The notes under the pieces: generated by a model
Told to the model about the DNA's origin: nothing
Database searches by the model: none
What the model saw: only the letters and a program-made list of their open reading frames with translations
Shown: positions 1 through 62,825 of the stretch, one piece after another
Layout of the letters: each line of letters starts with the position of its first letter
Position numbering within the stretch: the stretch's first letter is position 1
Made by a program: the position numbers and the translations under genes
Assembly (NCBI GenBank): GCA_963817895.1
Contig: CAWFQB010000005.1
Coordinates: 384,001-448,000, forward strand
Length of the DNA: 64,000 nucleotides
Direction of reading: 5' to 3'
Source of the DNA: an uncultured Chthonomonadaceae bacterium
GTDB lineage: Bacteria; Armatimonadota; Chthonomonadetes; Chthonomonadales; Chthonomonadaceae

Positions 1-1058
1 CGCTCCCAGTGATCCTTGACCTGATTGGGTTCATCTAAAATCACCACGCCCTCTTCGGCAAGGTAGTTGCAGGCGCACGTTCCCTGCGGAACCAGATAGG
101 GGAAATACTGCTCCAACCCGTCGAAATACGCGGATTGCTGCAAGGCGGCAACATCTTTCTCAATCCGGTCGGACAGCCGTTCAATGGCTTCCCGCGCTTC
201 CCGCGTTCCCTCCTTGATGAACACCGCCCGCCGCGCTTCAAACAGGGCGTGGATTTCGGCAAGGGCAGGCGCGAGACGCTCTTTATTCAGGCGGATTTCG
301 CGGGCGGGGGCGAGTTCCACGCTGGCCCGCTTTGTGATGCTGCGCTGCGTCGCCACATCGAACACGCGCAGGCTCTCGATCTCATCCCCGAACAGTTCGA
401 TGCGAACGGGCGCGTCACTTGTGGAGGAAAACACATCTAAAATGCCGCCGCGCCGTGAAAATTCGCCTGGTCGCGTCACCGTGTTGGCAGGCTCGTACCC
501 CATTTCCACCAGACGATGCAGCACATCGTCCATGTCCATCGAGTCGCCCGCGTTCAACTCAAAAATATGCGGTATCAAATCTTCCGGCGGGCTTGTACGC
601 TGCAAAACCGCCTCGACCGTTCCAATGATGATGCACGGCTCCCGCTTCGCCAGCAACGCCAACGCCCCGATACGCTCGCCAATCACGCGAAAATCCGTAA
701 TATCGCCTTCCAAAAACTGGCTTTGCGAGGATGGCAGCACGGCAAGTTGTTCGCTCGGAACGCCAAACCGCGCCAGATCATCCCACAACCGCTGCGCCTG
801 CTCCTGCTGATAGGTAATGACAAGAATAGGTCGTTCCAGCCGAGTAAACAACCGCGCCAGCGCATACCCCTTCGCCGGCCCCGCCAGTCCCTCAATTTCA
901 ACGGCGGGGGTTGGTGGGTGGGGCAGGGATGAGGGATGAGGGATGAGGGATAAATCTTCTTTTCCCTCTTCCCTTTTCCCTTTTCCCTGCAACTTCGTTA
1001 CAATATCGCCAAAACCGGGAAGCGCGTCTGCTAATCGGGGCAAGTCATTGAGTGTCAT
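1..1058 (-). CDS. mfd: Transcription-repair coupling factor, 5' part (runs off the window start)
   Basis: Not in the ORF track because its stop lies outside the window. Manual minus-strand translation from ATG 1058 gives MTLNDLPRLADALPGF...IEGLAGPAKGYALARLF...ELNAGDSMDMDDVLH...PGEFSRRGGILDVFSSTSDAPVRIELFGDE, the UvrB-homology region of Mfd. Confidence 0.92.
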   Translation of the reverse strand, partial: MTLNDLPRLADALPGFGDIVTKLQGKGKREEGKEDLSLIPHPSSLPHPPTPAVEIEGLAGPAKGYALARLFTRLERPILVITYQQEQAQRLWDDLARFGVPSEQLAVLPSSQSQFLEGDITDFRVIGERIGALALLAKREPCIIIGTVEAVLQRTSPPEDLIPHIFELNAGDSMDMDDVLHRLVEMGYEPANTVTRPGEFSRRGGILDVFSSTSDAPVRIELFGDEIESLRVFDVATQRSITKRASVELAPAREIRLNKERLAPALAEIHALFEARRAVFIKEGTREAREAIERLSDRIEKDVAALQQSAYFDGLEQYFPYLVPQGTCACNYLAEEGVVILDEPNQVKDHWE

Positions 1059-1238
1059 ACAAATGTGCCTTTAGGTTCGTTTTTCTTAATTCTACATATT
1101 TCAGGCGCAAATGGTTCGCGTGAGTCGGGGAACCATCCCGGAACAGTGAAGAAAAGCCAGCCCGAAATTTTATTCTCCAATGGTAAGCCGCGAAGTAGTT
1201 CCTCATCCTACAAATATGTGACACCAACAAATACGCTG

Positions 1239-2006
1239 ATGTCCCAACACACTCCATCGCAATCGGATGCGAAAGTATCCACCAGGAACCCCGCAAGGGC
1301 AGAAGGGCAGGCTAAGTTGAACAAGAATGACAGCAGTAACACGGCGGTACTCAATGCCGCTCCCGTGACCGCAAGATCGGTTGATCCCGTCACCTGTACC
1401 ATTGGGCTTGACTCGTTCTTCATCAAGACCACGCGCTCACTTCATAAGGACACTGACTTCGTTACCGTCAGCCTGGCGATTGCCAATCGTCCAACCTTAT
1501 CGCAGACACGCGCTGTGGGCGACGTGGGCGACGGGAACCACGCGCTCAACATGTCCTTTCCCCACGTTTCCATTGCGCCGCATGAGACGGCGGTGTTGAC
1601 GTATGCGATAGTCAACAGCGGACACCAGGACTCGGGCAAGGTGATACAGACCCTTGAACAAGCAATCAAAGATATTGCCACTCTGGGGGCTAAGTTCGCT
1701 GCGTCTGAAGCGGGCGCAGCCCTCGGCGCTACATTGGGCGCTTCCATCGGCACAGCAGCCGTTCCCTTCATCGGCACGGCGGTAGGAGCGGTGGCTGGCT
1801 ACCTGTTAAGCAAGGGCTTCAATCTCCTATTCGCCAACTGCGATGGACCAGTCGCCGCCGCCGTTCGCGCGCTGACATACGATCAGATCAAAGCGGTGGT
1901 CGCAAGTGGCAAGCCGCAGCCCCATACCGACGATCATCCCGGCGTCAACTCGCCTCACGGCTGTGGCGCAAACTCTCACTATACGGTTACATGGTCGGTG
2001 AAATAG
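1239..2006 (+). CDS. Hypothetical protein with glycine-zipper segment
   Basis: Long ORF; GAALGATLGASIGTAAVPFIGTAVGAVAG glycine zipper; C-terminal NCDGP and SPHGCGANSHY motifs. Start uncertain (1065 or 1239). Confidence 0.7.
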   Translation: MSQHTPSQSDAKVSTRNPARAEGQAKLNKNDSSNTAVLNAAPVTARSVDPVTCTIGLDSFFIKTTRSLHKDTDFVTVSLAIANRPTLSQTRAVGDVGDGNHALNMSFPHVSIAPHETAVLTYAIVNSGHQDSGKVIQTLEQAIKDIATLGAKFAASEAGAALGATLGASIGTAAVPFIGTAVGAVAGYLLSKGFNLLFANCDGPVAAAVRALTYDQIKAVVASGKPQPHTDDHPGVNSPHGCGANSHYTVTWSVK

Positions 2007-2271
2007 CGGCTCCGCCGCCTGCACTTTGCAGGAGAACACCTCACAGTGCCGTTCTGTCTCTCCCCTCGCCAACTGCACTGTCGAGGGGAGGAATACGATC
2101 TATGAATTCTTATAATGAAGCTGCGGCTAACGTCTCGGTTTTTCAACAGGTGCCTGGCCGAGCGCATGTCAAATTTTATAATGAGTAAAGAGCTAAGAGG
2201 AATCTTCAAGAATAAAGATGAATAAGCTTCTGTCTTTTAGATTATGGCAGCTTGCGTAGGAGGGTACTTTG

Positions 2272-6893: not shown

Positions 6894-7087
6894 GTGTGCT
6901 CCCACCACGTCAACAGAAACCAGATTCTTTTAACAAAAGCCAGTTCTGCTATACGCCAGGCTGAAAAGTCAGTCGGCGCAAAAAAATAAGGGTTCGCGGC
7001 TCCGTTTCTCGCTTTGTCCACGAGTTTCCTGCTGTTTCGACTACGACCTGGCGCATAAGCCCCGCGCATACTGCTGTCAACTCATTC

Positions 7088-7125
7088 GCCTTCTCCTGAA
7101 AGTGGGAGAGGAACCGGGAATGAGG
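7088..7125. repeat. Degenerate CCTCTCCC/GGGAGAGG-type palindromic repeat
   Basis: GCCTTCTCCTGAAAGTGGGAGAGGAACCGGGAATGAGG, similar to the copies at 13352, 38389 and 60793. Confidence 0.45.
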
Positions 7126-7148
7126 TCTTCAAACGAAAGGTGATAGCG

Positions 7149-10268: not shown

Positions 10269-10386
10269 GGGAGTAGGGAGTAGGTTGCAGGGAGTAGATA
10301 AACGCGCTCCTGTCAACCCCTTTTAAACAGGCAAAACGGTAAATTACAGGCTTTGCCTAGTCCCTACAACCTACTCCCTACTTCCT
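10269..10386. repeat. Inverted pair of heptamer runs (GGGAGTA ... CTACTCC)
   Basis: GGGAGTAGGGAGTAGG just after the flgF stop; CCTACTCCCTACTTCC at about 10370. Confidence 0.75.
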
Positions 10387-10634: not shown

Positions 10635-11423
10635 ATGAGTTGCGCTCTGTTTACCGCCGCTACGGGGCTTGCCGCACAGCAGCTCAACCTCGACGTTATC
10701 GCCAACAACCTTGCCAACGCCAACACGGTCGGGTTCAAAAAAGCCCGCGCCGATTTCCACGACCTTGTGTACCAGATCAACCGCGAACCTGGCGCACAGA
10801 CCGGCGCGAACTCCTCCCTGCCCACCGGGATGCAAATCGGGCTTGGCGTCAGCGCAGGCACGACTGCCGCTTCGTTTTTGCAGGGAACGCCGCAGAGTAC
10901 GGGCGGCGATTACGACCTTGCCATTCAGGGGCAGGGCTTTTTCAAAGTGCTGCTTCCCGATGGAACCAGCGCGTACACCCGCGCCGGAAACTTCGCCATT
11001 GACAGCGCGGGCAAGCTCGTCACCTCTGAAGGCTACGCCGTCCAGCCCGAAATCATCGTTCCCCCGAACAAAAGCAACGTCAGCATCAGCATGGATGGTC
11101 AGGTTCAGGTGTCGGTTCCCGGCCAGGCCGCATCGCAGCAGGTTGGGCAGATACAACTCACTACCTTCCCCAACCCCGCCGGCCTGCGCAACCTCGGCGG
11201 CAACCTGTTTCAGGCGACCAGCGCTTCCGGGCAGGCGGCGGATGGCAATCCCGGCGCAAACGGCGCGGGTACACTGCAGCACCATGCCATCGAAGCCTCC
11301 AACGTGGACATTGTGGATGAAATGGTACGCATGATCGTGCTGCAACGCGCCTACGACACCAACTCCAAAGTGGTGCAAACGGCGGACGAGATGCTCAGTA
11401 CCACCAACAACCTCAAGCGGTAG
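10635..11423 (+). CDS. flgG: Flagellar basal-body rod protein FlgG
   Basis: ALFTAATGL...IANNLANANTVGFKK, FHDLVYQ, GMQIGLGV, EASNVDIVDEMV...QRAYDTNSKVVQTADEML. Confidence 0.95.
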   Translation: MSCALFTAATGLAAQQLNLDVIANNLANANTVGFKKARADFHDLVYQINREPGAQTGANSSLPTGMQIGLGVSAGTTAASFLQGTPQSTGGDYDLAIQGQGFFKVLLPDGTSAYTRAGNFAIDSAGKLVTSEGYAVQPEIIVPPNKSNVSISMDGQVQVSVPGQAASQQVGQIQLTTFPNPAGLRNLGGNLFQATSASGQAADGNPGANGAGTLQHHAIEASNVDIVDEMVRMIVLQRAYDTNSKVVQTADEMLSTTNNLKR

Positions 11424-11453
11424 TGGTTGGTGGTTGGTGGTTGGTGATTGGTT
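11422..11453. repeat. GGTGGTT heptamer run
   Basis: AGTGGTTGGTGGTTGGTGGTTGGTGATTGGTT directly at the flgG stop. Confidence 0.8.
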
Positions 11454-11562: not shown

Positions 11563-12612
11563 ATGATTTTCTTTTACGCTCCGCCGCCAACCAGTACCGC
11601 TCAATTATCGTCAAGCGGCAATCGCCACTCGATAATTAGCAATCGAAAATCGGCAACCGATAATCAGCAATCGAAAATCGAAAATCGGCAATCGGCAATC
11701 ACGACGATTACGGCGAAGGCTGTTATCGAAGTGAAGGATACGCGCTTCACGCTGGGCGAGATCGCCGATCTGGACGGCAAGGATAAGGAATTGCTGGCGC
11801 GGCTGGCCCGCGTGGAGATTGGCGCGTCCCCTTTGCCCGGCCTGTCGCGCCCGCTGTATCCGGGCAACATCGCGGTACATCTGCGCGCCGCGCAACTGGG
11901 CAGCCTGCTGGACAGCAAAAAGCTGGAAATCGTCGCGCCAAGCGAGATGCGCGTGACGCGGGGCGGGCAGGATGTGAGCGCGGACGAGATCACGCGGGTC
12001 GCGCTCGCGGCAGGGCAGGCGGCTGTCAAAGACATTCCCAACGCCACTCTTGAAGTCGAGCCGGTGAACGGCAAAGCCACCCTGCCTTCGGGCAAACTCC
12101 GGGTGATCGCGGGCGCGTTTCACATTCTGCCCGAAGGCGGCGCGTTTACAGTTCCCGTGACCCTGATGGCGGATGGCAAAATCGAGCGGGTTGTCAATGT
12201 TACGCTGCGGATGCAGCGCAGGCTCATGGCGCTTGTCGCCACACATCCTCTGGAACCGCATGACATACTGGCAGCCGAAGATGTGCAGCTTACGCTCGTG
12301 ACCCTGCCGCCCGGTTTTATAAAGCCTGTAATCCGGCTGGAAGACGCTATCGGCAAGCGCGTGACCCGGCGAATTTTGCCCGACGGCCTGCTGTCGGCAA
12401 CGATGCTGGAAGTTCCGCCGGACATGGCGGCCAACGCCCGACTGACCATTGAATACATTTATGGCAGCATCCACATTACGGCCCCCGGATTGGCGCGGCA
12501 GGCGGGCAAAATCGGAGATACCATTCGCGTGTACGCCCTCGATACGCATCGGGAACTGGAAGCCGTCATCGTGGACGAGCATACGGTTCAACTGCGGGAA
12601 GCGGGAGAATAG
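11563..12612 (+). CDS. flgA: P-ring formation chaperone FlgA
   Basis: LGEIADL...IGASPLPG; SAF-like domain; GLARQAGKIGDTIRV C-terminus; position between flgG and flgH. Start uncertain. Confidence 0.85.
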   Translation: MIFFYAPPPTSTAQLSSSGNRHSIISNRKSATDNQQSKIENRQSAITTITAKAVIEVKDTRFTLGEIADLDGKDKELLARLARVEIGASPLPGLSRPLYPGNIAVHLRAAQLGSLLDSKKLEIVAPSEMRVTRGGQDVSADEITRVALAAGQAAVKDIPNATLEVEPVNGKATLPSGKLRVIAGAFHILPEGGAFTVPVTLMADGKIERVVNVTLRMQRRLMALVATHPLEPHDILAAEDVQLTLVTLPPGFIKPVIRLEDAIGKRVTRRILPDGLLSATMLEVPPDMAANARLTIEYIYGSIHITAPGLARQAGKIGDTIRVYALDTHRELEAVIVDEHTVQLREAGE

Positions 12613-14699: not shown

Positions 14700-15032
14700 T
14701 GAACGTTCAGGATTTCAGGGGTCAGGATTCAGGGGTCGGCGAGTTCGGCCAAACCGAGTACAACAGAAAAAAGGACAAGCTGAAGCAGACCACGCAGGAC
14801 TTCGAGGCTATCTTTCTCGGCATGATGCTCAAGCAGATGCGCAAATCCGTTGCGGGGCAGGACGCTCTTTTCGGCAAAAGCCACGAAGTCCAAAATGTTT
14901 CAGGACATGATGGACGACACAACCGCCAAAAATCTCAGCAAAGCCGGCTCCTTCGGCCTGGCGAAACTGCTGTACAAAACGATGGAACACACTTTGCCGC
15001 CGAAGCCGGACAAAGTAGGGAGTGGGGAGTAG
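14699..15032 (+). CDS. flgJ: Rod-binding FlgJ-like protein (one frameshift near 14885)
   Basis: KLKQTTQDFEAIFLGMMLKQMRKSV in one frame continues as KMFQDMMD...GSFGLAKLLY in another. Confidence 0.8.
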
Positions 15033-15143
15033 AAAGTAGGGAATGGGAAAAGTTTTCATGCCATTCGTTTTACCTGTTAGCACGAGCGGTATAAGCGCAA
15101 GCGAAGTTTTCCTACTCACCTACTTCCTACTCCCCACTCCCTG
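15014..15143. repeat. Inverted pair of heptamer runs (GGGAGTR ... CTACTCC)
   Basis: AGTAGGGAGTGGGGAGTAGAAAGTAGGGAATGGG ... CCTACTCACCTACTTCCTACTCCCCACTCCC. Confidence 0.75.
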
Positions 15144-17172: not shown

Positions 17173-17240
17173 CTTTATGAGAGTGAGAGTGAGAGGAGAG
17201 AAGTATCTCGTTCGCTCTCACTCTTCACCTGGAGGCGACC

Positions 17241-18140: not shown

Positions 18141-18237
18141 ATTAGATATTAGATATTAGATATTAGCGAAGACCCACCTGGAAGCAAGCCCTTGAATGTT
18201 AAAACGCGCCTATTTTGTCTAATATCTAATATCTAAT
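18141..18237. repeat. Inverted pair of heptamer runs (ATTAGAT x3 ... ATCTAAT)
   Basis: ATTAGATATTAGATATTAGATATTAG and TCTAATATCTAATATCTAAT. Confidence 0.85.
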
Positions 18238-18928: not shown

Positions 18929-19048
18929 AAAACTGTGTGGTTCCACGCTGAAGCGCGTCTAAACGCATTTCCTAACAACCTGACAACTTAACAACTAACA
19001 ACCTATTCCCCTACTTGTTCGCATTTCACGCCATGGAGGGCCACGTAA

Positions 19049-31018: not shown

Positions 31019-31051
31019 GTTGTTAGGTCGTTAAGTTGTTAGGTTGTTAGG
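31016..31051. repeat. AGGTTGTT octamer run
   Basis: TAGGTTGTTAGGTCGTTAAGTTGTTAGGTTGTTAGG between convergent stops; reverse-complement relative at 18971-19003. Confidence 0.75.
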
Positions 31052-33612
31052 GTTTCAGGTTTGATGGGGCAAACGCCTGCAATTCGGCGCAGGAGGCGAA
31101 GTTTTGGGCGGGGTTGTCGCCGCAGGCGGGCTTGCCGACAATGCGGACGGCTGTTGCCGAGATGGGCGCAAACGATACGGTAAACGGCTGGCCGCTTTTC
31201 AAGCCTTTGGAGTTTGTCGCGGTTGTGGCGGGATACGTGTCCAGAGTGGCGACGGTTTTCCATTCGCCACCCGGCGCGGTTTGCGCCTGAACTTGCGGCT
31301 TTCCCGCCGAGGTATCGAACCAGCCGCCGTCGTGGAAGGTCTTGCCGTGCATGAACGTGACGCGGCTGACCAGAACCGGCTTGTCGGTTGTAACGGCGAA
31401 CCAGTCTTCCTCGGCTCTGCTATGGTTGTAAGTAACGGCGAACGTGCCGGCATCGTCGTCGGCAATGCTGTCGAACGTATTGCCGGTTCGCGACGCGCTC
31501 ATGGCCGCGCCGCTGAAGGCGGACAATCCGCCAACTGCCGCGTGTCCCGGCAGGGGTATCCACACCTCATAGCGGCTTTTGCCGTCCCCGCCCACGTCCG
31601 CATACGAAGCAAGCAGCAGGGGCGTGATCTCTTTTTGTCCCGCCACATGCCCCTCCACCGTATAAATCGGATAGGGCGAATTGCGGGTTTGGGCTGTGGG
31701 CAGCAGCTTGAAATTGGTCGGGTTGTCGGTTGCCAGTTCCAGCTTTTTCAGGGGCGCGGCATTGAGGGCCAGAATCCAGCGCGAGTACGAGCGGCCCCTT
31801 TGTAATCACGGCCCTGCCCTCGTTCTCGTGATCGCCCAACACCAGTTTTGTCGGAATGGTCAGGTTCAGTTCAATCTTGTCATTCTTTTTCCACGCCTGC
31901 GTGAGCGTGACGTACTGCGCCCCTTTCGCTAACGGTTCCAGCCGAACACTTTTGCCGTTGACGCGCAGCGACTCCACATTCGACCATGCGGGAACGCGCA
32001 AATGCAGCGGGAATTTCTGGCCGTTGAGGGAGGGCGCGACGGTCAATATGATTTGCCCATCCAGCGGGTAGCGCGTTTCCTGCGTGAGCGTGACGGTGAA
32101 GCGGGCGGGCATCTTTCCCGGCATAAAGCCGGGAGTAAAGGGAAACTTCGTGTAGCCTTCCAGTATCTCTGTGGCCGTGCCGCTGTTGTAGATATTCACG
32201 ACAAGGCCGCCGTCTTTACCGGTCATAGTGGCGAATTCGGGAATCAGGGCAATGCCGCGCGGCCCCGAAGAGTGGCAGCAGGTCGTGGCGGTATCGTAGG
32301 GTTTGTGGCCGTCAAGCGGCGTGTAGTACGCCCAATCGTCCCCGGTCGGCTTTTGCGCCCCAAGCAGATGATTGTAAACGGACTTTTCCAGTTGGTCGGC
32401 AAACTGCGCTTCCCCGGTCAGGCGCAGCAGTTCCAGATTCATCTGTTCCCACGTCACTGTCACGCAGGTTTCGCAAATGTTGGCGTTTTGCGCGTTGGGC
32501 AGGTTGAAACTCGTCCTGAAAATGCTCGAACGAGGACGCGCTTCCCGTAATATACAGCCGGTTAGCGACAATGTCTTTCCACGCCGTTCGCATGTCGTCC
32601 AGCAACCGCTTATCCCCGGTCACGCGGTACAACTCCAATAGCCCGTTGAAATTGGAGGTCATTTCGTAGGCTTTGGCATTGGCGACCTTGCGCACTGAGC
32701 CGGTTTTTTCCAGACTCGCCAGTATCGCGGGACCACCCGGCGCATCATAATGCCGAACGATGTACTCCGCGAACTGTTTGTAACGCGCCTCATCCGTCGC
32801 CCGGTACAGCAGCACAACCGCTTCCAAAACGCTGTCGGGAGCCATGCCCACATGCTCACCCGACTTGTTAATATCCCGTTGCCCCGCCCCATCCCCGAAC
32901 GTTTGTATCAGCAGATCGCCGATTTTGCGGCATGCGTTTAATACGGTGGTTGGTGGTTGGTGGCTGGTGTTAGGTTCCTGTAAGGATGAGGGATGAGGGA
33001 TGAGGGATGAATCTCTCCTGCACTTTTCCCTTTTCCCTTTTCCCTTTTCCCTTCCTCTGTCTCTTCCCTTTTCCCTTTTCCCTCTTCCCTACTGTATTGG
33101 TAATACGTGAGCAGGCCGAGCAGGTCGTATTTGTGAACCCAGACATCCCAGCTTGTCCAGCGTTTGTTAGTGGGGTAAGTGCCTAAATAGCCGTCCGGTT
33201 CCTGCGTTTTGAGCAGGCGGGCAACGACGCGATCCAGTTTGGTTTTCAGCGCGGCATCGCCCGTGTTCTGCCAGGCGAGCGTGGCCGCGTGGAGGAATTT
33301 GCCGACGTGTTCGCCCTGCCAGTCCTGATGCGGAGCGTTGCGCCGCTCAAAGCAGTCGAGCATGTCGTCTTCGTTGACGTTGAGCAGGCGAATCTTTTCG
33401 TTCCGGTCAATGCGCGGGCCGAGCATCCCGCCCGTCAGCCGGATTTGATCGGGCGGCAGGGGCGAAAACACGTCCTGAACCTGCGCGGTATGGGGCAGAG
33501 CCAATCCCGTCGGGTTCTGCTGCGCCCGCGTCAGCATGGGCGCAGCGGCAAGCCCGAAACTTAGAGCAAATGTAGATACCGCGCGAAAGCGAAGTTTATT
33601 TTTTAGCAGCAT
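31047..33612 (-). CDS. Secreted GH127 (beta-L-arabinofuranosidase-like) with C-terminal discoidin-like domain; several frameshifts
   Basis: WQGEHVGKFLHAA, QEPDGYLGTY, KAYEM, CETCVTVTW, YNHLLGAQ, TCCHSSGPRG, QETRYP, LRVPAWS across ORFs 32938-33612, 32312-32851, 31567-32571 and 31047-31658. Confidence 0.88.
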
Positions 33613-38767: not shown

Positions 38768-40811
38768 ATGGTTAGCGCGATAACTACAGATTTATATGAT
38801 GTGCAGACAAAGGCGCGGGGGCCGGTGGGCGAACTGCCGGTCACGGCGGATATGCTGCTGCACCGACCGAGCGGCGATATTTTCGCTCTGTCGCAGAACG
38901 CGGGCATGGGCTGGAATCCGAAACAGCTCAACCGCCGCGAATTTTTGATTCTGTCCACGCAGGGCGGCATCCGCAACCCGGACGGTTCGCCCGTCGCGCT
39001 CGGCTACCATACCGGGCATTGGGAAGTGGGGTTATTGATGCAGGCCGCGGCGGAAACGCCTGTCGGCAAACGATTGCCTGCCGTTTGCCGCGTTTTGTTC
39101 CGATCCGTGCGACGGGCGTTCGCAGGGCACGACGGGGATGATGGACAGCCTGCCGTACCGCAACGACGCGGCAACGGTTTTCCGCCGTTTGATACGCAGC
39201 CTGCCCAACCGTAAAGGCGTTTTGGGCGTGGCGACGTGCGACAAGGGCCTACCGGCGATGATGATGGCTCTGGCCGCGATGCGCGATTTGCCCTGCGTCC
39301 TGGTTCCCGGCGGCGTCACGCTTCCCGCCGAACATGGCGAGGACGCGGGCAAAATCCAGACAGTTGGGGCGCGGTTCGCGCATGGCCTGATTACCTTAAA
39401 AGAGGTGGCGGAAATGGGATGCCGAGCCTGCGCCACGCCGGGCGGAGGCTGCCAGTTCTTCGGCACGGCGGCGACTGCGCAGGTCGTGGGCGAAGCATTG
39501 GGCATGTCCCTGCCCCATTCCGCGCTCGCTCCCTCGGGGCAGGCCATCTGGCTGGATATGGCGCGGCAGTCCGCGCTGGCAATGATTGAAATGGCGACAA
39601 ACGGCGTGACCATGCGCGACATTCTCACAGACGACGCGGTGCGCAACGCCATGACGGTACACGCGGCCTGTGGCGGAAGCACGAACCTGCTGCTGCACAT
39701 TCCCGCCATTGCCCATGCCGCCAAACTGCGCCGCCCGACTGTGGACGACTGGCACACAATCAATGTCCGCACTCCCCGCCTCGTAGACGTGCTTCCCAAC
39801 GGCCCGACCGACCATCCGACCGTGCGCTTTTTCCTGTCCGGCGGCGTTCCCGAAGTGATGCTGCACCTACGCGAAATGGGATTGCTGCATCTGGACGCGC
39901 GGACCGTGTCCGGCAAAACCGTCGGCGAGAACCTGAACGAGTGGGAACACTCCGAACGCCGCGAACGATTGCGCGAACGATTGCGCGAACAGGACGGCGT
40001 TGATCCCGATGATGTGATTTTATCCCCCGCCCGCGCCCATGAAAAGGGATTGACCAGCACCGTCACCTTCCCGCGCGGCAACCTCGCCCCGCAGGGATCG
40101 GTCATCAAAAGCACGTCCATTGCACCCGAAGTGGTAGACGCGGACGGCATCTACCGCAAAACGGGACTGGCCCGCGTGTTCACGACCGAACGGGCGGCGA
40201 TTGAAGCGATCAAGGGCGTGGAAGAGGTCACGGAAGAAGAGGAGAAAAGGAGAAAAGGAGAAAAGGAGAAGTTGCAGTCAGACCTTTCCTCTTCTCCTCT
40301 TCTCCCCCTCTCCCCCTCTCGCGTTTTGCCCGGTGACATTCTCGTCCTCATCTGCCGGGGGCCGATGGGGGCGGGGATGGAGGAGATTTACCAGATTACG
40401 AGCGCGTTGAAGTTTCTGCCCTGGGGCAAGCAGGTGGCGGTGATTACGGACGCGCGGTTTTCGGGGGTTTCGACGGGCGCGTGTATCGGACATGTCGGGC
40501 CGGAAGCGCTGGCGGGCGGGCCGATTGGCAAAATCGTGGACGGGGATGTTATCGAGATCGTGATTGACCGCAACAGTCTGGAAGGCACGGTCAACTTGAT
40601 CGGGCATGGCGAAACGCGGTTCGGGGCGGAGGAGGGGACGCGGGTTCTGGCCGAGCGTCCGATGCGTCCCGACCTGCATACCGACCCGGATTTGCCGGAC
40701 GATACGCGGCTGTGGGCGGCGTTGCAGGCGGTCAGCGGTGGGACGTGGGGCGGCTGCGTATACGATGTAGACGAGATCGTGTCACGGCTAAACGTTGTCG
40801 GCGGCGTTTGA
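38768..40811 (+). CDS. YjhG/YagF-family D-xylonate dehydratase (IlvD/Edd superfamily); frameshift near 39060
   Basis: [71 protein letters not shown]. Confidence 0.9.
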
Positions 40812-43140: not shown

Positions 43141-43167
43141 CGCGAATGAACGCGAATACACGCGAAT
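43141..43167. repeat. Decamer tandem repeat CGCGAAT-N3 x3
   Basis: CGCGAATGAA CGCGAATACA CGCGAAT. Confidence 0.7.
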
Positions 43168-43207
43168 GAGAAAATCATTTTCTATGGGGAAACGCGCTGT
43201 AACAGTG

Positions 43208-44689: not shown

Positions 44690-44772
44690 GGCTCACTCCC
44701 AACACAAAAACTTACGCGAAAATAAAGGTAAACTTAACAAACTACCAACCACCAACCACCGGAGAATAATTC

Positions 44773-50728: not shown

Positions 50729-52306
50729 ATGCTTATGTCTATCGCTCATTTTCTCCCCGGGTTTGCCGTGATTACCTGTCTCGAACTGGCCGTTATCTTC
50801 TTCCTGCTTTACCGGTATGTGGATGCCGAAAAGTCCAACGCGATCTTCAGTTTGCTGTGCCTGTGTTTCGCCTGCATGATCTGGAGCACCTACGAGTTGG
50901 TTCATGCGGAAAGCGTGACTTTCCGGCTGCTAATGGTTCGGTTTCACCTGACAACCGCGACTTTCGGCCTGCTGATGTATCGGATTCAACTGATGAGCGG
51001 GATTTTCGCCGCTGCCGCATCGGTCCACTTTGCGCGGCTTATCACGCAAGCCGCCCCTATTTCCACTGTGCCTTCAGCCTCACCCCTTCCACAACGCTTT
51101 GCGGCGCGATGGCGCGCGCTGACAGCCGTTCTCGCGCTCTGCCCCTGGCATCCCTTCGTGCTGCATCGCCTGTACAAATATGCGCCTGTGGATGATTACG
51201 ATTCGGCAATGGCCGGCCCGTGGTTCCGCCACTACATTCTTGTTATATTTTCAGGGTCCCTTTATGCGTGTGGCCTCTTCATTGTCGCCTGGAAACAAAA
51301 CAGGAAGAATAAGAGGACGGCTATAGAGGTTGTGGAGGAGGGTTATCGCGTATTCGCCAGTCAGACTTTGTGGCTGGTGTTCAGTTTTGGATTGATCCTG
51401 CTGGCAAGCGTTATAGAATTCATTCAGGCGGTGGAGGGTCCCAAAAACACCTGGTATTTCCCCGTATTTCCGCGCGCGTGGGCAATCCTGGTCTTTTGTT
51501 TTACCACCGCGTACAGCCTGGCAAAGCAGATTGTGGTGAACGAGCGGCGCAAAGCGCAGATCAGAGCGGTTGCCGAAACGCGCCTGGAAGCCACGCGGCA
51601 TATCCAGCATCAGGTGCGAAACGCGCTGGCGCAAATTCAACGGCCGTTGCACACCGTTCTGGAGCAATCGCCGGTCGAACCTTCGGAAGCGGGGCAGGCC
51701 GCAAACCGGCAGCGCGTGATACGCGCAACGGCAGCCATTGAGGAACTACAGCACACGCTGGATGTCGCGCTCAATCTGGCCCGCGTGGAGGTGGGCGAAC
51801 CGGTCAAATTGGGCGCGAAAACTTCGGTTCCGATTGCGAATTGGGTGGAAATGTTGTGCCGCGCCCGGCTCGGTTTGGAGGACGCGGCTTCCCCTTCGCT
51901 CGCCCAAATTCTGCAATTGAAGTTCCATGCCGATCTGTCTGTCGTGGACGTGTATGTGTATGCGGACGCGCTGCGGGAAGTGTTCGCGGTTCTGCTGGAC
52001 AACGCCTGCAAGTACGCCCCGAAAGGCAGCCTGCTCACCGTTCAGGTCTGGAACACTCCCGACCGGCTCTGCTTTTGCGTGGCCGATCAGGGCTGTGGCG
52101 TCCGCCCCGAAGATAAAGAGCGCATTTTCGAGTTGTACAGGGGACGGCAGCCTGCTGTGGGGCATATTGCGGGTACGGGCATCGGCCTGACGCTGGCAAA
52201 ACGTTACATCGAGGCGCAGGGCGGCGGCATCCGCGTTGAAAGCGAAGGCGACGGACAGGGCAGCGCGTTTTATTTCCATATCCCTCTGGAAAAGGATGAA
52301 GGATGA
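50729..52306 (+). CDS. Sensor histidine kinase with multi-TM input domain
   Basis: About 7 hydrophobic segments; H-box QHQVRNAL; LLDNACKY, DQGCG, GTGIGL, GSAF. Confidence 0.92.
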   Translation: MLMSIAHFLPGFAVITCLELAVIFFLLYRYVDAEKSNAIFSLLCLCFACMIWSTYELVHAESVTFRLLMVRFHLTTATFGLLMYRIQLMSGIFAAAASVHFARLITQAAPISTVPSASPLPQRFAARWRALTAVLALCPWHPFVLHRLYKYAPVDDYDSAMAGPWFRHYILVIFSGSLYACGLFIVAWKQNRKNKRTAIEVVEEGYRVFASQTLWLVFSFGLILLASVIEFIQAVEGPKNTWYFPVFPRAWAILVFCFTTAYSLAKQIVVNERRKAQIRAVAETRLEATRHIQHQVRNALAQIQRPLHTVLEQSPVEPSEAGQAANRQRVIRATAAIEELQHTLDVALNLARVEVGEPVKLGAKTSVPIANWVEMLCRARLGLEDAASPSLAQILQLKFHADLSVVDVYVYADALREVFAVLLDNACKYAPKGSLLTVQVWNTPDRLCFCVADQGCGVRPEDKERIFELYRGRQPAVGHIAGTGIGLTLAKRYIEAQGGGIRVESEGDGQGSAFYFHIPLEKDEG

Positions 52307-52531
52307 AGGGATTTTCGATTTTCGATTTTCGATTGTGTCTCCTCTTCTCGTATCTCGTATCTCGTATCTCCTATCTCTCCTCTAATTCTCGTAACGTATA
52401 CAGGTGTTTAGCAACCAAAATGTAGCCTGTACAGAACTCCGCTTTTGTTGTATCCTGCATCTATAGTTTTCAGGGATAACGCGCCTCCGTTATTTAAGGT
52501 GGCGTGACATTCATCCTTCATCCTTCATCCT
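52292..52531. repeat. Composite heptamer block (AAGGATG, ATTTTCG, TCTCGTA ... TTCATCC)
   Basis: Three different 7-mer runs after the kinase stop; TTCATCC x3 at 52510-52530 is inverted to the first run. Confidence 0.85.
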
Positions 52532-52549
52532 TTGCCAAAGGGGTTCGCT

Positions 52550-53236: not shown

Positions 53237-56200
53237 ATGAAAACTGTCTGGCAGATAACGCTGTTCACCAAAATGTCCGTGTGCCGGGAAGGACAACCTC
53301 CTCTGAAATTGCGCAAGCGCCGCAGCGCGGAGTTGCTGGCCTACCTTGCGCTGCATCGGGGTCGGGAAAATCGGCGCGAAATGCTGGCATCGCAAATCTG
53401 GCCGGAAGACGGCCCGGACGTGAGCCGCCAGAACCTGCGCTCCGCGCTCACCCTTCTGCGTGAACATCTGGAAACGCCGCCTATCCTGGAAGACGGCCTG
53501 GCCGGGAATGTGGTGCTGGCGGATACGGTTGTCGCGTCCCTGAACTTCGAGTGCGTGACAACGGATGTTGCCGCTTATGAAGCCCTGCTGCGGCAGGTAG
53601 AACCCTCGGATACAAACGGCAAGCGCATTGTGTTGCTTCGGGAGGCGACGGCCCTTTACGGCCATGGGCTTTTACCCGAATGGTACGACGAGTGGGTGTT
53701 GAACGAACAGAACCGCTTGCGGCAGGAACAGCAGCAGGCTCTGATGCGGTTGTCCGGGCTATTGCGCGACCGCGACGAGAACGAGGAGGCTATCCTCCGG
53801 GCGCGGCAGGCTCTTGCCTTAGATGCCCACCATGAACCGGCTCACGAGTGTTTGATGCGCGCGTATTTGCAGGCCGGACAAACCACTTCGGTGTTGCAGC
53901 ATTACAGGCGCATGGAGCAGGTGTCCGGCGAATGTGAGGGGGACGCGCCCTCCCCGAACCTACAGGCGCTGGCGCGGCAGGCGCGAATTCAGGCGCAAAT
54001 AGCCCGCAGGACGGACAACACCCCGGCAAACTTGCGCCCCGCTAACCTGCCTGTTCCCCCGACACAGTTTTTTGATCGCGTGGACGACCTTGCCAACCTG
54101 CGCGGACTCCTGCGCTCCGAACGGAAGTTGATAATCCTGACAGCCATCGGGGGCGCGGGCAAAACCCGGCTGGCAATGGAAACCGCGCGAAGCCTGCAAA
54201 TGGATTTCGACGGGCGCGTATTTTGGGTGGAACTGGCGGCCCTGACAAACGCGGACGGCATTGCGGAAGCGATAGCCGAAACGGTTCTGCGTCAGCGTCG
54301 CGCGGACACGCCTGCTTGGGAACAACTGGCGCAGGACGCGGGTAACGCGCAAGTCCTGCTGGTTCTGGACAACTTCGAGCATCTGGCGGAAACGGGCGCA
54401 AATGTGGTTCAGGAACTAATGCGTCGGCTGCCAGTCTGGAAACTGCTGGTCACGTCGCGGCAGGCGCTGCGGATACCGGGCGAACAAACGTATGCCGTGC
54501 CACTTCTGACTCCACAAGCCAGTGTGGAGTTGTTTGCGGATCGCGCCGGACTGGTCAATTCGTCGTTTGTTCTAAACGCGCAAAACACGCCCCTTGTTAT
54601 GGCCCTGTGCAAACGTCTGGACGGCCTGCCCCTTGCGCTCGAACTGGCTGCCGCGTGGTCGGACCTGCTGACTCCGGCAGAAATTCTTCAGCGTCTGGAA
54701 TTCCGTTTCGATCTGCTGGTAAGCCACTACCGCGCGGTTCCCCTGCGCCATCGGAGCCTGTACGCCATGATTGACTGGAGCCACGCGCAATTGCCGCCCG
54801 CTCTACAACAGTTGTTCGCGCGCCTGTCCGTCTTTCGAGGCGGCTGGAACGTGGAAGCGGCGCAGGCGATAGAAGGGGTCAGGGGCCAGGAGTCAGGGGT
54901 CAGGCAGGAGGGAATAGAAGAAGCGATCTCAGCAGGCAGGAACGAGCCGCGCGAGAGGAAGTTTGATTCTGAGACGGACATTTTGTTCGGGCTGCGGGAG
55001 TTGCAGGCGCGGTCGCTGATTGTCGGGACGCAAACCGATGCCGGGACGATGCGCTACGCCATGCTGGAAACTCTGCGCGAATTTGCCCACGCGCGGCTTT
55101 CCGAAACGGAACGTTCCCACATGGCGGATAGCCACGCCGCGTATTTCCTGAATCTTGCCGAAACCGCAACTCCGCATTTGAACGGGCCGGAAGCGAAAAC
55201 ATGGCTGGACGCTCTGGACAGGGAGCGCGAAAACCTGAATGTCGCGCTGGATTGGCTGTGCGAGCAGCGACAAACGCAGGAGAGTTCGCGTCTGGCAACC
55301 GCGCTGGCCCCGTTCTGGTGGACGCGCGGCCATGCGAGTGAAGGGCGGCAACATTTTACCCGTGTTCTGGCGCTTTCCGACGAGCCAACGGTGTTACGCG
55401 CCCGGACTTTGCGCTATGCGGGCGCGCTGGCGAGCTACCAATCCGATCTGGCGGCCTCCACGCGCCTGCACATCGCAAGTCTGCGCGTGGCGCGAAAGTT
55501 GCAGGATCAGAATAGTATCGCCTGGGCGCTGTATCAACTGGGGCATACCCGGCTGACTCAGGGCAAATACCAAAAGGCGTACCGTCACCTTGACAAATCT
55601 CTACAGATTTGCGCAACGGATACGGATGAGGATACGCACCTGCAAGCCGTGACGCTGCATAAAATTGGCAGCGTCCTTCTGGTACAAAACGCCTGGGAGG
55701 AGGCGGGCCGTTATTTTCAACGCAGCGCGGCTCTGTTTCATGAACTTGGCGACCGGCAGGCAGAGGCGACTTCGCTGCTCAACATCGGCAATGTGCTGGT
55801 CAATCAGGGCCGTACGGACGACGCTCGGACGCAGTACCAACGGGCGCTACAGATGTTCGGAAGCGTCGGAGATGTCCTGATCGTGGCCGTCACGCAGCTT
55901 TGTCTGGGCGGCGTCGCCTATCGCGGCAACAGGGACGATGAAGCGCGGCAACTCATGGAAACCGCTCTGGACACATTCCGGCGTTTAGGAGCGCGCATCC
56001 ATGAAGCCTGGGCGCAGTTTTATCTGGGCAATCTGGCCTGGCAGCAGGGCGACCAGGAATCGGCGCGAGAGCTTTATAGAGATAGCCTGCTGCTGCTACG
56101 GGAAAGCGGTGATCAGCGGCGAACCGCGCTTCTCGTCATGGCCTTCGGCTGGCTGGCGCAGTCGGAAAACAACCCGCAGCGCGCGGCGCGTTTATTTGGA

Positions 56201-59089: not shown

Positions 59090-60742
59090 ATGTTTGAAAC
59101 GGTGCGGTTGGAGAAAACGGAGCGTCCCGCCGTTGTGGTCATCGGGATGTTCAAGGATAGGGACGCGGTAAGCGATTTGGCGCAGGTTTTGCCCCTGTAC
59201 GGGCGTCCGGTTGTCGAAGCCGCGCTGTCCCGGCGGGAATGGACGGGCGACGCGGGCAGCATCAGCGAAGCGTTTCCACAGGGCGAAAACGCGCCGCAGC
59301 GTATTCTCATCGTTGGGCTGGGCAAGCGCGACAAGCTGAACGCCGAAGCTATGCGCGACATTGCCGCCAAAGTGGGGCGGCGATTGGCGCAAATTAAAGA
59401 GCCGAATGTCCGCGTAGAAATGGCCCCCCTGCTTAAAGCGGCAGGCGTAGACGAGACGCAAATCACGCTGTACGGACGCTGCTGGGGCGAAAGTCTGGGA
59501 CTGCTGGCCTGGAACGCGCGAACGCTGGCGGGCAGCGCGACCAAAAACAGAGCCACAAATGGCGAGCCTGGCGACACTAGCGGCGCAAACGGCAGTGAGG
59601 GCGGCAAAGAGGATACTACTGCGCCCGACCGGATCGCCCTGACCGTGACCGCTTCCGATACGGCGTTTACGGCGGGGCTGGAATATGGCCTGACGCTGGC
59701 GGATGCCGTGAATCGGGCGCGCGCTCTCAGCCAAACCCCGCCCAACATCGCCACGCCCCTCTACATCGCGCAACTTGCGCTACAGCTTGCCGCAGAAACC
59801 GGCCTCACTTGCCGCATCCTTCAGGGCGAGGAACTGGAACAGGAACAACTCGCCGGACTAATCAACGTCGGCAAAGCATCCGTCAACCCGCCGTGCCTGA
59901 TACGGTTAGAGTATATGCCGGCAGAGGGAAGAGAAGAGATACGAGATACGAGATACGAGATACGAGAAGGAGCGGATTCACCAACCACCAACCACCAGCC
60001 ACCAACCACCTTAGTCTTGATTGGTAAAACCATTACCTACGATACCGGCGGATTGTCGCTGAAAATCAACAATGGCATGGTGGGCATGAAGCGCGACAAG
60101 GATGGCGGTTGCGCCGTCCTGGGCGCGATGGCGGCGGTTGCCACGTTGCTCAAACCGAACTTTCCGGTTGTCGGGCTGCTCGTGGCGGCGGAAAACATGG
60201 TTAGCGACGCCGCGTTCCGGCCCGATGATGTGCTGACGTACCGCAACGGCGTTACGGTCGAAGTGACGAATACGGACGCGGAGGGGCGTTTGGTGTTGGC
60301 GGACGCGCTGTGCTGGGCGTGTGAACGGGAAAATCCGGGCGCGATTGTGGATTTGGCGACATTGACGGGCGGCGTGGTCACGGCACTGGGTTCCACGTAT
60401 GCGGGGCTGTTCTGCGAGGACGACGGCCTGCGCGCGCAACTGGAACAGGCGAGTGAGGCAAGCGGCGAACGCATCTGGCGGCTGCCGCTGCATCAGGAAT
60501 ACCGGGACATGCTCAAATCGCCCGTTGCCGACATTATCAATTCCAATCCTAATCGCAAAGCGCATCCCATACAGGGCGCGGCCTTTCTGAGCTACTTTGT
60601 TACGGAAAATATGCCCTGGGCGCACATAGACATTGCGGGCGTTCACGCCGTTGACGGCGACAATGGTCCCTTCGTGAAAGGTCCGACGGGCTACGGCGTC
60701 CGCCTGCTCGCCGATCTCGTCACCGCCTACACGCCAAAGTAA
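59090..60742 (+). CDS. pepA: Leucyl aminopeptidase (M17)
   Basis: GKTITYDTGG, MKRDKDG, AENM, NTDAEGRLVLAD, DLATLTG, WAHIDIAG. Confidence 0.92.
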   Translation: MFETVRLEKTERPAVVVIGMFKDRDAVSDLAQVLPLYGRPVVEAALSRREWTGDAGSISEAFPQGENAPQRILIVGLGKRDKLNAEAMRDIAAKVGRRLAQIKEPNVRVEMAPLLKAAGVDETQITLYGRCWGESLGLLAWNARTLAGSATKNRATNGEPGDTSGANGSEGGKEDTTAPDRIALTVTASDTAFTAGLEYGLTLADAVNRARALSQTPPNIATPLYIAQLALQLAAETGLTCRILQGEELEQEQLAGLINVGKASVNPPCLIRLEYMPAEGREEIRDTRYEIREGADSPTTNHQPPTTLVLIGKTITYDTGGLSLKINNGMVGMKRDKDGGCAVLGAMAAVATLLKPNFPVVGLLVAAENMVSDAAFRPDDVLTYRNGVTVEVTNTDAEGRLVLADALCWACERENPGAIVDLATLTGGVVTALGSTYAGLFCEDDGLRAQLEQASEASGERIWRLPLHQEYRDMLKSPVADIINSNPNRKAHPIQGAAFLSYFVTENMPWAHIDIAGVHAVDGDNGPFVKGPTGYGVRLLADLVTAYTPK

Positions 60743-60792
60743 TTTTCGTTTCAGACCGTAACTCTTCCGCCTCATCTCCCAACGAACCAGTC

Positions 60793-60838
60793 TCCCCTTC
60801 TCCCAGGCTTTTTTGGGACAAGGGGCGGGGGTGAGGGC
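60793..60838. repeat. CCCCTTCTCCC...GGGAxAAGGGG-GGGGGTGAGGG palindromic repeat
   Basis: Same family as 13352 and 38389. Confidence 0.7.
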
Positions 60839-60854
60839 TACTCCGAGGAAAACC

Positions 60855-61766
60855 ATGAAAACTACCACTGTTGCCACTGTACTGACCGGCCTCGCACTGG
60901 GAATTCTGCCCGCCCCACCCGTCCGCGCCCAGGAAACGCCTGCCGCAAAAACAAAGCCGGCTGAGAACCAGTCCAAAAAGGATGATAAAGCGAATGGCGG
61001 CGCGAATGGGCAAGCCGGACAAGAAGGAGGGGACGCGCAGGAGGACTTGATTAACCCGGATCGCCCCGGCATCGCTAACGGCAGCCAGGTCATCGGGCCG
61101 CGCCGGTTTCAGATCGAGGCGGGCGTACAAACCTACTTTTTGGGCGGCGGCAGTTCGACAGCGCGACTGTTGAGTGTCCCCACGCTGCTGCGCTTCGGGC
61201 TGGACAAACGCTACGAGATTCGCGTGGAAACTATCGGTTATTCGGCGTTAAGCACAAGCGACCCGGTTGCGGGCTTGCAGCACGCGGAGGGTTTCGGGCA
61301 GACTTCCATCGGGTTCAAGCGGACATTTCAGGCGTCGAGCGGGGCGAAGCATCCGGGCGTGGGAACTATTGTACGCTTTTTCCCCGCTTCCGGGGGCGGC
61401 GGGTTTGAAACCAAACACGCCACGTATGACGCGCTGCTGTGCGCCGACTGGGATTTTGCGCCCCACCTGTCCCTGAACCCCAACATCGGCTTTGGCGTGA
61501 ATGAGGACAGCAACGGAATTTTGTATGGCAACTTTCAACTGGCGTCCACGCTGACCTACGCCCCTACCACACATCTCGGCTTCTTCGTGGACTTCGGCTA
61601 TCAGGCCCCGGAAGAGGCGGGCGGGAGCGAGTCGCTAATCTATGACGCGGGCGCAACCTACATTGTGGGGCGCAATGTGCAGTTGGATGTTTCCGTCGGC
61701 ACGGGCGCGCGGGGCCGAAACTCGCCCCATCCCTTCTGGTCTACGGGCGTCAGCGTCCGGTTCTAG
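60855..61766 (+). CDS. Outer-membrane beta-barrel (MetA-phenol-degradation-like transporter family)
   Basis: Signal peptide; INPDRPG, FQIEAG, LLRFGL; terminal VSVRF. Confidence 0.8.
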   Translation: MKTTTVATVLTGLALGILPAPPVRAQETPAAKTKPAENQSKKDDKANGGANGQAGQEGGDAQEDLINPDRPGIANGSQVIGPRRFQIEAGVQTYFLGGGSSTARLLSVPTLLRFGLDKRYEIRVETIGYSALSTSDPVAGLQHAEGFGQTSIGFKRTFQASSGAKHPGVGTIVRFFPASGGGGFETKHATYDALLCADWDFAPHLSLNPNIGFGVNEDSNGILYGNFQLASTLTYAPTTHLGFFVDFGYQAPEEAGGSESLIYDAGATYIVGRNVQLDVSVGTGARGRNSPHPFWSTGVSVRF

Positions 61767-61796
61767 TATATAAGAACGCCCCAAAAAGGAAAACAT

Positions 61797-62825
61797 TTGA
61801 AAGCGGGAGTTTTAACGGTCAGCGATGGGTGCGCGCGTGGGGAACGGGAAGACGTTTCGGGGGCCACGCTTGCCGACACGTTGCAGGCAAATGGCTATGA
61901 AATCGTTCAGCGCGCGATTGTGCCGGACGAATTGGAAACCATTGCTGACACGCTGCGGCAGTGGCGCGCGTCCGGCTGCGACCTGATTATGACGACGGGC
62001 GGCACGGGATTTTCGCCTCGCGACATCACGCCGGAAGCCACTCGCGCCGTTGTGGAACGCGACGCGCCCGGTCTGGCCGAACTGCTGCGCTGGACGGGCT
62101 ACCAGAAGTTCCCCCGCGCTGTCCTGTCGCGTGGGGTTGCGGGCATTTGCGGCCAAACCCTGATTGTCAATCTGCCCGGAAGTCCCGGCGGCGTCCGCGA
62201 CGGTCTGGACACTCTGCTCCCGCTCCTCCCCCACGCCCTCGCCCTGCTGCGCGACGAACCGGTGGATCATACGCCTGTAAAGGAGGGTGTCGGGTTTCGG
62301 ATTTCGGGTGTCGGGGAAAATGCCAAGCCGACAAAGTCTGTTGAAAATGATAACACCCGACACCCGACACCCAACACCGTTGCCGTTCTGGAAACTAATC
62401 TGGACGATTTTTCGCCGGAGTTGTACGAGGTGGTGATGGAGCGGTTGTTTGCGGCGGGGGCGGTGGATGTGTTTTTGACCGACATTCAGATGAAGAAAAA
62501 TCGGCCTGCCACTCTGCTGACAGTTCTGGCGGCGGAAGACAAACGCGACGAAATGGCGGCAGTTTTGTTTGCGGAAACCAGCACGTTCGGGATTCGGCAT
62601 ACGGCTATGCAGCGCATGACACTGGAACGACGGTGGGAAACGGTAGAAACGCCTTATGGTTCGGTTCGCGTGAAAATCGGGAGTTGGCAGGGACGCGATA
62701 CAACCGCTTCGCCCGAATACGAGGACGTGAAAGCCGCCGCCCGCGCGCATAGCGTTCCCGCCAAAACCGTCTACGCGGCGGCGCAGGCGGCTTTCGCCAA
62801 TACGCGCCAGGCGGCTTCTTCGTAA
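61797..62825 (+). CDS. Fusion: MoaB/MogA domain + LarC C-terminal domain
   Basis: VLTVSD...TTGGTGFSPRDITPEAT...SRGVAG...NLPGSP; then LETNLDD...MKKNRP...ETSTFGIR...TPYGSVRVK...PEYED. Confidence 0.88.
   Translation: MKAGVLTVSDGCARGEREDVSGATLADTLQANGYEIVQRAIVPDELETIADTLRQWRASGCDLIMTTGGTGFSPRDITPEATRAVVERDAPGLAELLRWTGYQKFPRAVLSRGVAGICGQTLIVNLPGSPGGVRDGLDTLLPLLPHALALLRDEPVDHTPVKEGVGFRISGVGENAKPTKSVENDNTRHPTPNTVAVLETNLDDFSPELYEVVMERLFAAGAVDVFLTDIQMKKNRPATLLTVLAAEDKRDEMAAVLFAETSTFGIRHTAMQRMTLERRWETVETPYGSVRVKIGSWQGRDTTASPEYEDVKAAARAHSVPAKTVYAAAQAAFANTRQAASS

Follow-up and report, generated by a model that had tools for sequence, protein, structure and literature searches.

We analyzed a 64,000-nt window of the genome of an uncultured Chthonomonadaceae bacterium (contig CAWFQB010000005.1, positions 384,001 to 448,000) that carries short arrays of 7- and 8-nt units beside and inside its genes, many of them paired into hairpins. 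These hairpin elements are probably gene-less copies of very small mobile cassettes, which have a single gene and overwrite each other. The cassettes encode either a four-helix-bundle protein of the 23S-IVP family or a GxxExxY protein, and we read the elements in this way because gene-less and gene-carrying forms exchange, have the same arms and are copied whole. That the four-helix-bundle protein drives the movement is our prediction, to which we assign a probability of about 0.6. An initial annotation of the window had taken the repeats for one process that writes new loops into conserved proteins; what it observed is confirmed in part, and its interpretation is partly supported.

Hairpin elements throughout the genome

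The source genome of the window (G000) is a 7.48-Mb assembly in 14 contigs, 81% complete; its sites were compared with those of a sister species (G002) and of a further relative (G001). Exact runs of period 7 (n=557) and period 8 (n=289) occur in G000, against none of either in an order-5 Markov copy, and Tandem Repeats Finder returns 1139 period-7 and 617 period-8 arrays at a score of at least 40, against 0 and 3 in the control. The excess of such repeats suspected in the initial annotation is therefore real, and every heptamer unit that it named is present where it had been placed. The arrays merge into 1249 loci, at a density of 13-21 per 100 kb, and since they are spread evenly over all 14 contigs they are a genome-wide feature rather than a property of the window. 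They have a median of about 4.3 copies and draw on a limited vocabulary of units, with 6-, 9- and 10-mers as smaller classes.

The basic unit is a hairpin made of about four G-rich units, a spacer and about four C-rich units. In simple elements the arms measure about 31 nt and the spacer, which is AT-richer, has a median length of 48 nt. Two-array loci (n=564) divide into 290 exact inverted pairs and 274 with arms of differing units, and the order noticed in the window, with the G-rich block first and the C-rich block last, is that of 612 of the 644 multi-array loci genome-wide. When folded as RNA, the three junction elements tried all gave strong hairpins (z between -5.6 and -9.7); among five intragenic elements the one in Mfd folded well, two were weak, and those in PepA and GH127 formed no hairpin. 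No conserved outer terminus was seen in the elements of G000. Direct repeats of 5-8 nt at the edges of 373 elements were as frequent as in a shuffled control, so that no target-site duplication could be recognized, although old elements may have lost theirs.

The elements have a marked preference for the ends of genes. G-rich arms of G000 stand behind stop codons (609 versus 58 of 2110 arms), and 246 of 378 G-rich arms start at most 10 nt from the stop. Of 31 units that are themselves free of stop codons and lie in long intergenic gaps, 15 stand at the stop, where 2.0 would be expected. Elements also adjoin 18 of the 68 tRNA and tmRNA genes. In one tRNA array (contig C4, 228665-230044) nearly every spacer has an element of a different unit, a few bases past the tRNA 3' end. 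Outside the window, the two 23S rRNA genes each contain, at position 1218 of the Rfam model, an identical 92-nt insert formed by a gene-less element, whose hairpin takes the place of a 23S rRNA loop, as in 23S intervening sequences. From this position after completed genes and tRNAs, copying would seem to start on single strands that are transcribed or unwound, though part of the pattern could come from selection for places where an element does no harm.

Cassette genes and the replacement of elements

G000 has two four-helix-bundle and four GxxExxY genes, all of them outside the window, in agreement with the earlier remark that no candidate enzyme lies in it. These were also the families proposed for inspection, and all six genes are bracketed by a G-rich array on one side and a matching C-rich array on the other, with the gene on the strand of the upstream gene. 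Both four-helix-bundle proteins (TIGR02436, PF05635; 23S-IVP) and all four GxxExxY proteins (TIGR04256, PF13366) score above the curated profile cut-offs. The modeled four-helix-bundle protein matches 2GSC at 1.4 Å, and its fold is also that of 2RLD and Avd. A scan of 22,886 open reading frames (ORFs) of G000 for flanking inverted repeats found tandem arms enclosing cassette genes only, and recovered five of the six.

The association extends well beyond this genome. Within the same phylum (best matches per genome, leaving out two loci with short flanks and those of G000), inverted repeats flank 20/27 four-helix-bundle loci and 20/29 GxxExxY loci, against 0/24 and 0/25 in the controls. The period follows the family: four-helix-bundle arrays are 7-mers in 49/60 cases, and GxxExxY arrays are 8-10-mers in 30/32 and 7-mers in 0/32. 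A survey of bacterial phyla and one archaeon yielded usable flanks for 75 of 80 four-helix-bundle loci, with arrays on both sides in 37/75 and an inverted repeat in 34/75 (control, 0/60), and 92 of 106 arrays were 7-mers. In this survey a cassette's own unit recurred elsewhere in the locus in 9/50 cases, against 1/500 for a foreign unit. On viral contigs, 35 of 62 four-helix-bundle loci were positive; the alignment search gave 64 loci there, unlike a scan of viral sequences with a single protein, which gave none. Units are diverse (60 distinct ones among 72 proteins), and the unit tracks the protein only above about 60% identity. Genomes with and without cassettes also differ in 7/8-mer arrays, with 16 in 316 kb (8/20 genomes) against 2 in 356 kb (2/20 genomes), in a thin sample that counts kin as independent.

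A four-helix-bundle gene of Xanthomonas has arms of the GGGAATC class, the repeat described in PMC4692102. In one Nostoc genome (G110, L482-L503) eight identical four-helix-bundle genes stand at the end of insertion sequence (IS) copies with a single arm, the G-rich one being missing, and the same layout was seen beside an annotated ISL3 transposase. Carriage by an IS is thus a likely route for the gene between species. Some cassette genes are flanked on each side by complete elements in the G-then-C order (L027, L037, L039). We also considered the GxxExxY protein as the nuclease for every class and rejected it, as 3 of 10 genomes that have four-helix-bundle genes yielded no GxxExxY match.

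Comparison of the sister species shows that sites persist while their content changes. We compared 1.11 Mb of G002 (about 8 Mb in all), in which the flanks are 82% identical. Syntenic flanks were found for 121 of 1332 elements of G000: the units differ at 65 sites, the unit is shared at 22, G002 has no array at 15, and 19 were not called again in G000. Where both genomes are two-armed (36 sites), 15 sites have perfect inverted pairs built from different units, and orthologous spacers (17 pairs) score 17.4, against 16.7 for random pairs. Different perfect pairs around unrelated spacers imply that the whole element was replaced and the site persisted. The vocabularies have changed accordingly: the top unit of G000 has 22.7 arrays per Mb against 0 in G002, and two units of G002 reach 17.3 and 14.0 per Mb against 0.1 and 0.3 in G000.

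Cassettes take part in this turnover. Of the three sites that hold four-helix-bundle cassettes in G002, one has no element in G000, another a gene-less element of 7-mers and the third a gene-less element of 9-mers that is nested. Looked up in reverse, the G000 four-helix-bundle cassettes correspond in G002 to a 9-mer element without a gene and to a lone arm. The lone arm (L449, G002 contig C24, 82620-83640) is followed by what looks by eye like a small toxin-antitoxin gene pair. Five further cassettes gave no element, other genes or no syntenic pair.

Elements are also copied within a genome. One spacer family has about 18 copies at unrelated sites; one unit accompanies most of them, four or five other units the rest, and in G002 the family is found with yet another unit. 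Spacers shared under varying units indicate that elements are copied whole and that both arms can switch unit together. The claim that one length-fixed, sequence-flexible process is active in this DNA holds, and whole elements with shared spacers at unrelated sites favor mobilization over fresh synthesis; we regard the elements as very probably mobile. Two accounts were discarded: local copying, since neighbors share the same unit in 14/174 cases against 6.7% expected, and an origin of the spacers as remnants of cassette ORFs, since the matches were of arm type only.

The same observations bear on other explanations. The hairpins might be host signals for RNA processing or stabilization at gene junctions, spread by host recombination or gene conversion, with the cassette genes as passengers or regulators. 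The closeness of G-rich arms to stops and of elements to tRNA and tmRNA genes, the strong RNA hairpins and the conservation of sites between species are all in keeping with this, as is the cutting of the Coxiella intervening sequence by RNase III (PMC4990558). We nevertheless consider it unlikely, as it leaves unexplained a period that follows the protein family, the roughly 155 in-frame copies inside genes, the different vocabularies of the sister species, and sites that may be empty in relatives.

Somewhat less likely still is a telomerase-like reverse transcriptase (RT) that, with an Avd-like cofactor, would add G-rich repeats to both ends of a break before they are joined. Such healing predicts a G-rich strand that points inward from both ends, which is what the elements have; the many loci with arms of differing units and the fold that the four-helix-bundle protein shares with Avd, the cofactor of diversity-generating retroelements (DGRs; PMC10053308), also speak for it. 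However, spacers are copied together with their arms, unit variants are mirrored within an element's own arms in 145/218 cases against 501/1090 between elements, and the only RT found is retron-like and more than 100 kb from the nearest cassette. In its locus on contig C6 (L001, positions 4736-9996 of that locus) this RT has a long N-terminal extension and is followed by ORFs of 659 and 577 residues, the first with zinc-finger- and BRCT-like motifs recognized by eye.

A further account has polymerase slippage acting independently at low-constraint sites, with hairpins formed by local template switching. Slippage was put forward for the heptamer excess by Mrazek in 2007 (as reported in PMC4679880), and the account would suit the variable copy number and the uniqueness of most spacers. 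It is strongly disfavored here by a small vocabulary common to 1249 loci, shared spacer families, fixed polarity and the tie to two gene families.

Several findings weigh against our preferred reading, in which cassettes and their proteins are the source of the elements. Most spacers are unique (275/312 have no further match in the genome), and no insertion was met that is very recent and has a clean empty counterpart; a metagenome scan with FlgI for a recent pair of empty and filled sites had a closest match of 76% identity. Three GxxExxY cassettes occupy the same site in two genomes, so that cassettes can be stable. No 7/8-mer array was present in the sampled stretch of 12 of the 20 cassette-bearing genomes, and 41 of the 75 loci of the cross-phylum survey fall below the inverted-repeat threshold. 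The commonest units of G000 are not matched by any cassette in its assembly, which is 81% complete, and a clear enrichment of cassette units in the genome that carries them was seen in no more than 2 of 5 cases. G001 has 7/8-mer arrays (25 in 380 kb), and no four-helix-bundle gene was found in it. Finally, the four-helix-bundle family is not known to have a catalytic role.

Copies inside proteins and elements of the window

The loops that the elements add to proteins were the center of the initial annotation. By a home-made gene model, the reading frame continues through 167 of 1331 elements of G000; of 3000 random placements, 1359 would be in frame. The system is thus not mainly a writer of loops, since most elements lie behind stops or by tRNAs. 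With arrays of at least 24 nt there are 155 in-frame elements, in 139 ORFs. Twenty of these ORFs were sampled: 17 match Pfam, and SMC, a class I tRNA synthetase (two inserts), acetyl-CoA synthetase and an amino-acid kinase are among the twenty. The inserts have a median of 29 residues, are modular peptides, and are high in E, K and S and low in A, V, L, W and C. Their arms do not match in 81 of 94 two-armed elements, against 48 of 166 at junctions. Both the composition and the arm mismatch would fit a filtering for tolerated peptides.

Four proteins of the window (Mfd, the dehydratase, PepA and MoaB-LarC) have inserts that keep the frame in G000 as well as in G002, with differing units. More generally, frame is kept in 10/10 real inserts of G000 with a true G002 ortholog (12 pairs, minus one paralog and one non-insert), which implies selection. 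Among the 28 BTAD paralogs, the NB-ARC loop carries an element in nine, a tenth is labeled filled by its length alone, and the loop is empty in most; the filled or empty label changes nine times on the tree, with at least five changes forced by well-supported branches, so that the loop has been filled or emptied repeatedly. In-frame copies look like a depleted and filtered minority, with new protein loops as a by-product.

In the window itself (Table 1), of the seven proteins for which translation in frame had been claimed, the block is in frame in Mfd, FlgA, the dehydratase, PepA, MoaB-LarC and BTAD copy 3; in GH127 it is not read through as assembled, since the frame shifts across the block. 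FlgA makes a weak case, as the N-terminus of G001 is equally long and of low complexity without repeats. Repeat arms do supply the ends of flgJ and of the kinase, as had been proposed. The shift in GH127 occurs in both G000 and G002 (L106), whose inserts differ; coincidence, a shared error mode or programmed slippage could each be behind it, and with many frameshifts in both assemblies it may be either error or biology.

This richness, 25 of 108 genes tested in G000 and 7 of 24 in G002 by an uncalibrated test, is also what could make the repeats or their frames appear to be assembly artefacts. That would leave independent genomes with other units at the same sites, ten of ten orthologous inserts in frame and the same anatomy in cultured strains without an account, and we give the idea practically no weight. 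The splits by frame shifts of flgK (16034-17172), flgL (17241-18138), BTAD copy 2 (19416-22512) and GH127 (31047-34509) are probably assembly errors.

Table 1. Repeat elements of the 64,000-nt window, with their state in relatives where compared
Position	Strand	Element and site	Comparison or folding
925..988	-	mismatched-arm element, in frame near the Mfd N-terminus	G002 in frame with other units; G001 stretch shorter and repeat-free
10269..10386	.	inverted 7-mer element directly 3' of the flgF stop	RNA hairpin, z -7.4; one differing unit each in G001 and G002
11423..11452	+	G-rich arm directly 3' of the flgG stop	
11607..11700	+	C-rich arrays in frame, FlgA N-terminal low-complexity region	G001 as long without repeats
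14706..14737	+	G-rich arm 3' of the flgI stop, overlapping the likely flgJ start	G001 and G002 carry arms of different units here
15014..15142	.	inverted 7-mer element giving the flgJ stop, ending before flgN	z -9.7; different unit in G002, no element in G001
17178..17230	.	short inverted 6/7-mer element, flgK-flgL gap	none in G002; different unit in G001
18141..18237	.	inverted 7-mer element, flgL-fliW gap	z -5.6; different unit in G002
18972..19002	+	lone C-rich 8-mer arm 3' of fliW	none in G002
31016..31051	.	lone 8-mer arm amid a convergent gene pair	different units in G002
32945..33090	-	compound element in the GH127 gene, frame shift across it as assembled	+104 nt relative to repeat-free G001
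40235..40320	+	8-mer element in frame, C-terminal domain of the YjhG/YagF dehydratase	G002 in frame with different units
43141..43169	+	10-mer arm of the class flanking the GxxExxY gene of contig C8; absent from the initial annotation	
44740..44760	+	lone C-rich 7-mer arm ahead of the S9 peptidase gene start	
52292..52532	.	nested compound element giving the kinase stop, ending ahead of the response regulator	
54874..54904	+	in-frame G-rich arm, BTAD copy 3 NB-ARC loop	paralog comparison
59936..60010	+	mismatched-arm element in frame in PepA	no insert there in solved PepA chains; +66 nt relative to G001; site empty in five relatives
62285..62378	+	inverted 7-mer element in frame, MoaB-LarC linker	three genomes, three unit sets, all in frame

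Other repeats share the window with these elements. A separate REP-like palindrome family (38141-38602, about 60790-60830 and 13347-13403) has up to 31 copies in G000 and flanks two small ORFs (C1:437952 and C5:310805), which we take to be Vsr/DUF559-like. There are dispersed repeats at 25766-25899 (45 copies) and 24513-24657 (13 copies). The first of these matches the flanks of a Y1/RAYT-like gene (C5:223662), so that ordinary REPINs probably coexist with the heptamer elements. An element of about 105 bp with inverted ends (3288-3394) resembles an ordinary miniature inverted-repeat transposable element (MITE); G000 has 10 copies of it and G001 several. Elsewhere in the genome, ARAGORN reports a selenocysteine tRNA (C1:245013) and a candidate pyrrolysine-type tRNA with anticodon cta (C11:90528).

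Known systems and a possible mechanism

The nearest known relatives are the 23S rRNA intervening sequences with an S23p/IVP gene (PF05635, TIGR02436), which have the same protein family and hairpin ends. The Coxiella intervening sequence has heptameric repeats before its ORF as well as inverted ends, and an older proposal holds that this ORF serves mobility (PMC4990558). Unlike in such intervening sequences, the rRNA is here one site among about 1,250, cassettes stand amid ordinary genes, gene-less copies dominate, and there is a second cassette family, GxxExxY, with longer periods.

The heptamer repeats of cyanobacteria are known as STRR, and the elements share the features of that class, namely dispersed short 7-nt arrays with the G-rich strand behind stops. 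With the repeats of cyanobacteria, Xanthomonas and Beggiatoaceae they have in common 7-nt units in about four copies, convergent pairs and a presence inside some ORFs (PMC4692102, PMC4679880). G-rich heptamers lie 3' of stops and in convergent pairs in Xanthomonas and Nostoc (PMC4692102), and a heptamer is also described ahead of start codons, with no evident mechanism (PMC4679880). The published repeats are treated as single motifs acting as G-quadruplex or regulatory sites, whereas many units here are incapable of forming a quadruplex. A word search in the accessible text of these two papers gave no link to the four-helix-bundle protein, and the replacement of elements at a site is not described there.

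REPINs and their RAYT genes (PMC3116915) are similar in being non-autonomous hairpin doublets, in hundreds per genome and in nested clusters, with the same repeats around the presumed mover. They differ in that the arms here are tandem arrays rather than palindromic REPs and that the flanked gene is not an HUH transposase. A RAYT was rejected as the mover, since none of the three Y1 genes of G000 has period-7/8 arms, each being flanked by non-heptamer sequence of its own. MITEs and Rickettsia palindromic elements (PMC10969869) are likewise short and gene-less with inverted ends, and may lie in frame in housekeeping proteins. The elements resemble MITEs in these respects and in their many copies, but neither a target-site duplication nor a conserved terminus or peptide was found, and among the 22,886 ORFs there is no DDE transposase with matching ends, the IS genes having ends of their own. 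The Rickettsia element is a palindrome of about 150 bp that encodes one conserved peptide; here most two-armed in-frame elements have non-matching arms.

The Avd protein of DGRs has the same fold (TM about 0.8), and its homology with IVP is on record (PMC10053308). One of the two four-helix-bundle proteins gives a weak profile match to Avd; identity is 11-14%, and no RT, template or variable repeat was found beside the cassettes, the one RT of G000 being distant from them and retron-like. The arrays of a 2026 preprint on RTs have units of 200 nt.

Full-text searches, which covered few subscription papers, yielded no link of dispersed heptamers to these two gene families and no description of fixed-site replacement, and papers naming four-helix-bundle genes gave, in their accessible parts, no link of these to repeats. 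The curators of the families may have noted the flanks informally. We file the system as one of known parts, in which the link of dispersed heptamers to cassette genes appears to be new and the ORF-bearing intervening sequence is extended genome-wide. It is distinct from MITEs, REPINs, Rickettsia palindromic elements and DGRs, although it functions in the manner of a MITE or REPIN.

How such elements might move can be outlined as follows. In the simplest reading they are copies of an autonomous cassette and relate to it as REPINs do to RAYT genes, with other ends and another protein. By binding the arms, the four-helix-bundle protein would cause elements to be copied into earlier ones and over them. 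What a ring of the protein reads may be how the units of a single-stranded G-rich array are spaced, and not any one sequence. Five chains are present in each of 2GSC and 2RLD, and a five-membered ring, if the protein forms one here, sitting on four to five 7-nt units would give a fixed period and copy number with free sequence. Copying would start from a transcribed hairpin, and the copy would land 3' of a completed gene or tRNA or within an element already present. For cutting and joining, the GxxExxY nuclease may serve its own class and host repair enzymes the 7-mer class. Inside proteins, selection would keep those arm combinations that are in frame, free of stops and hydrophilic, in loops that tolerate them.

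More tentatively, at rather less than even odds, the four-helix-bundle and GxxExxY genes could be the autonomous members of an undescribed class of mobile elements without a transposase, whose ends are read by their period and not by their sequence, and which re-home into their own earlier landing sites, rewriting the repeat vocabulary of the entire genome from one sister species to the next. Bacterial heptamer repeats would then stem from this class, as would 23S intervening sequences with an ORF and the new disordered loops of housekeeping proteins.

The reading of the elements as cassettes and their copies joins three matters: the heptamer excess of bacteria, what the 23S-IVP and GxxExxY proteins do, and how rRNA intervening sequences arose. 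At 500-600 bp, a cassette is small enough to make this three-way link testable in a laboratory strain. About 139 ORFs of G000, among them those of SMC, a class I tRNA synthetase, acetyl-CoA synthetase, Mfd and PepA, would have loops so derived and rewritten between sister species. If a protein does move hairpins without a transposase, this would be a new mode of DNA movement.

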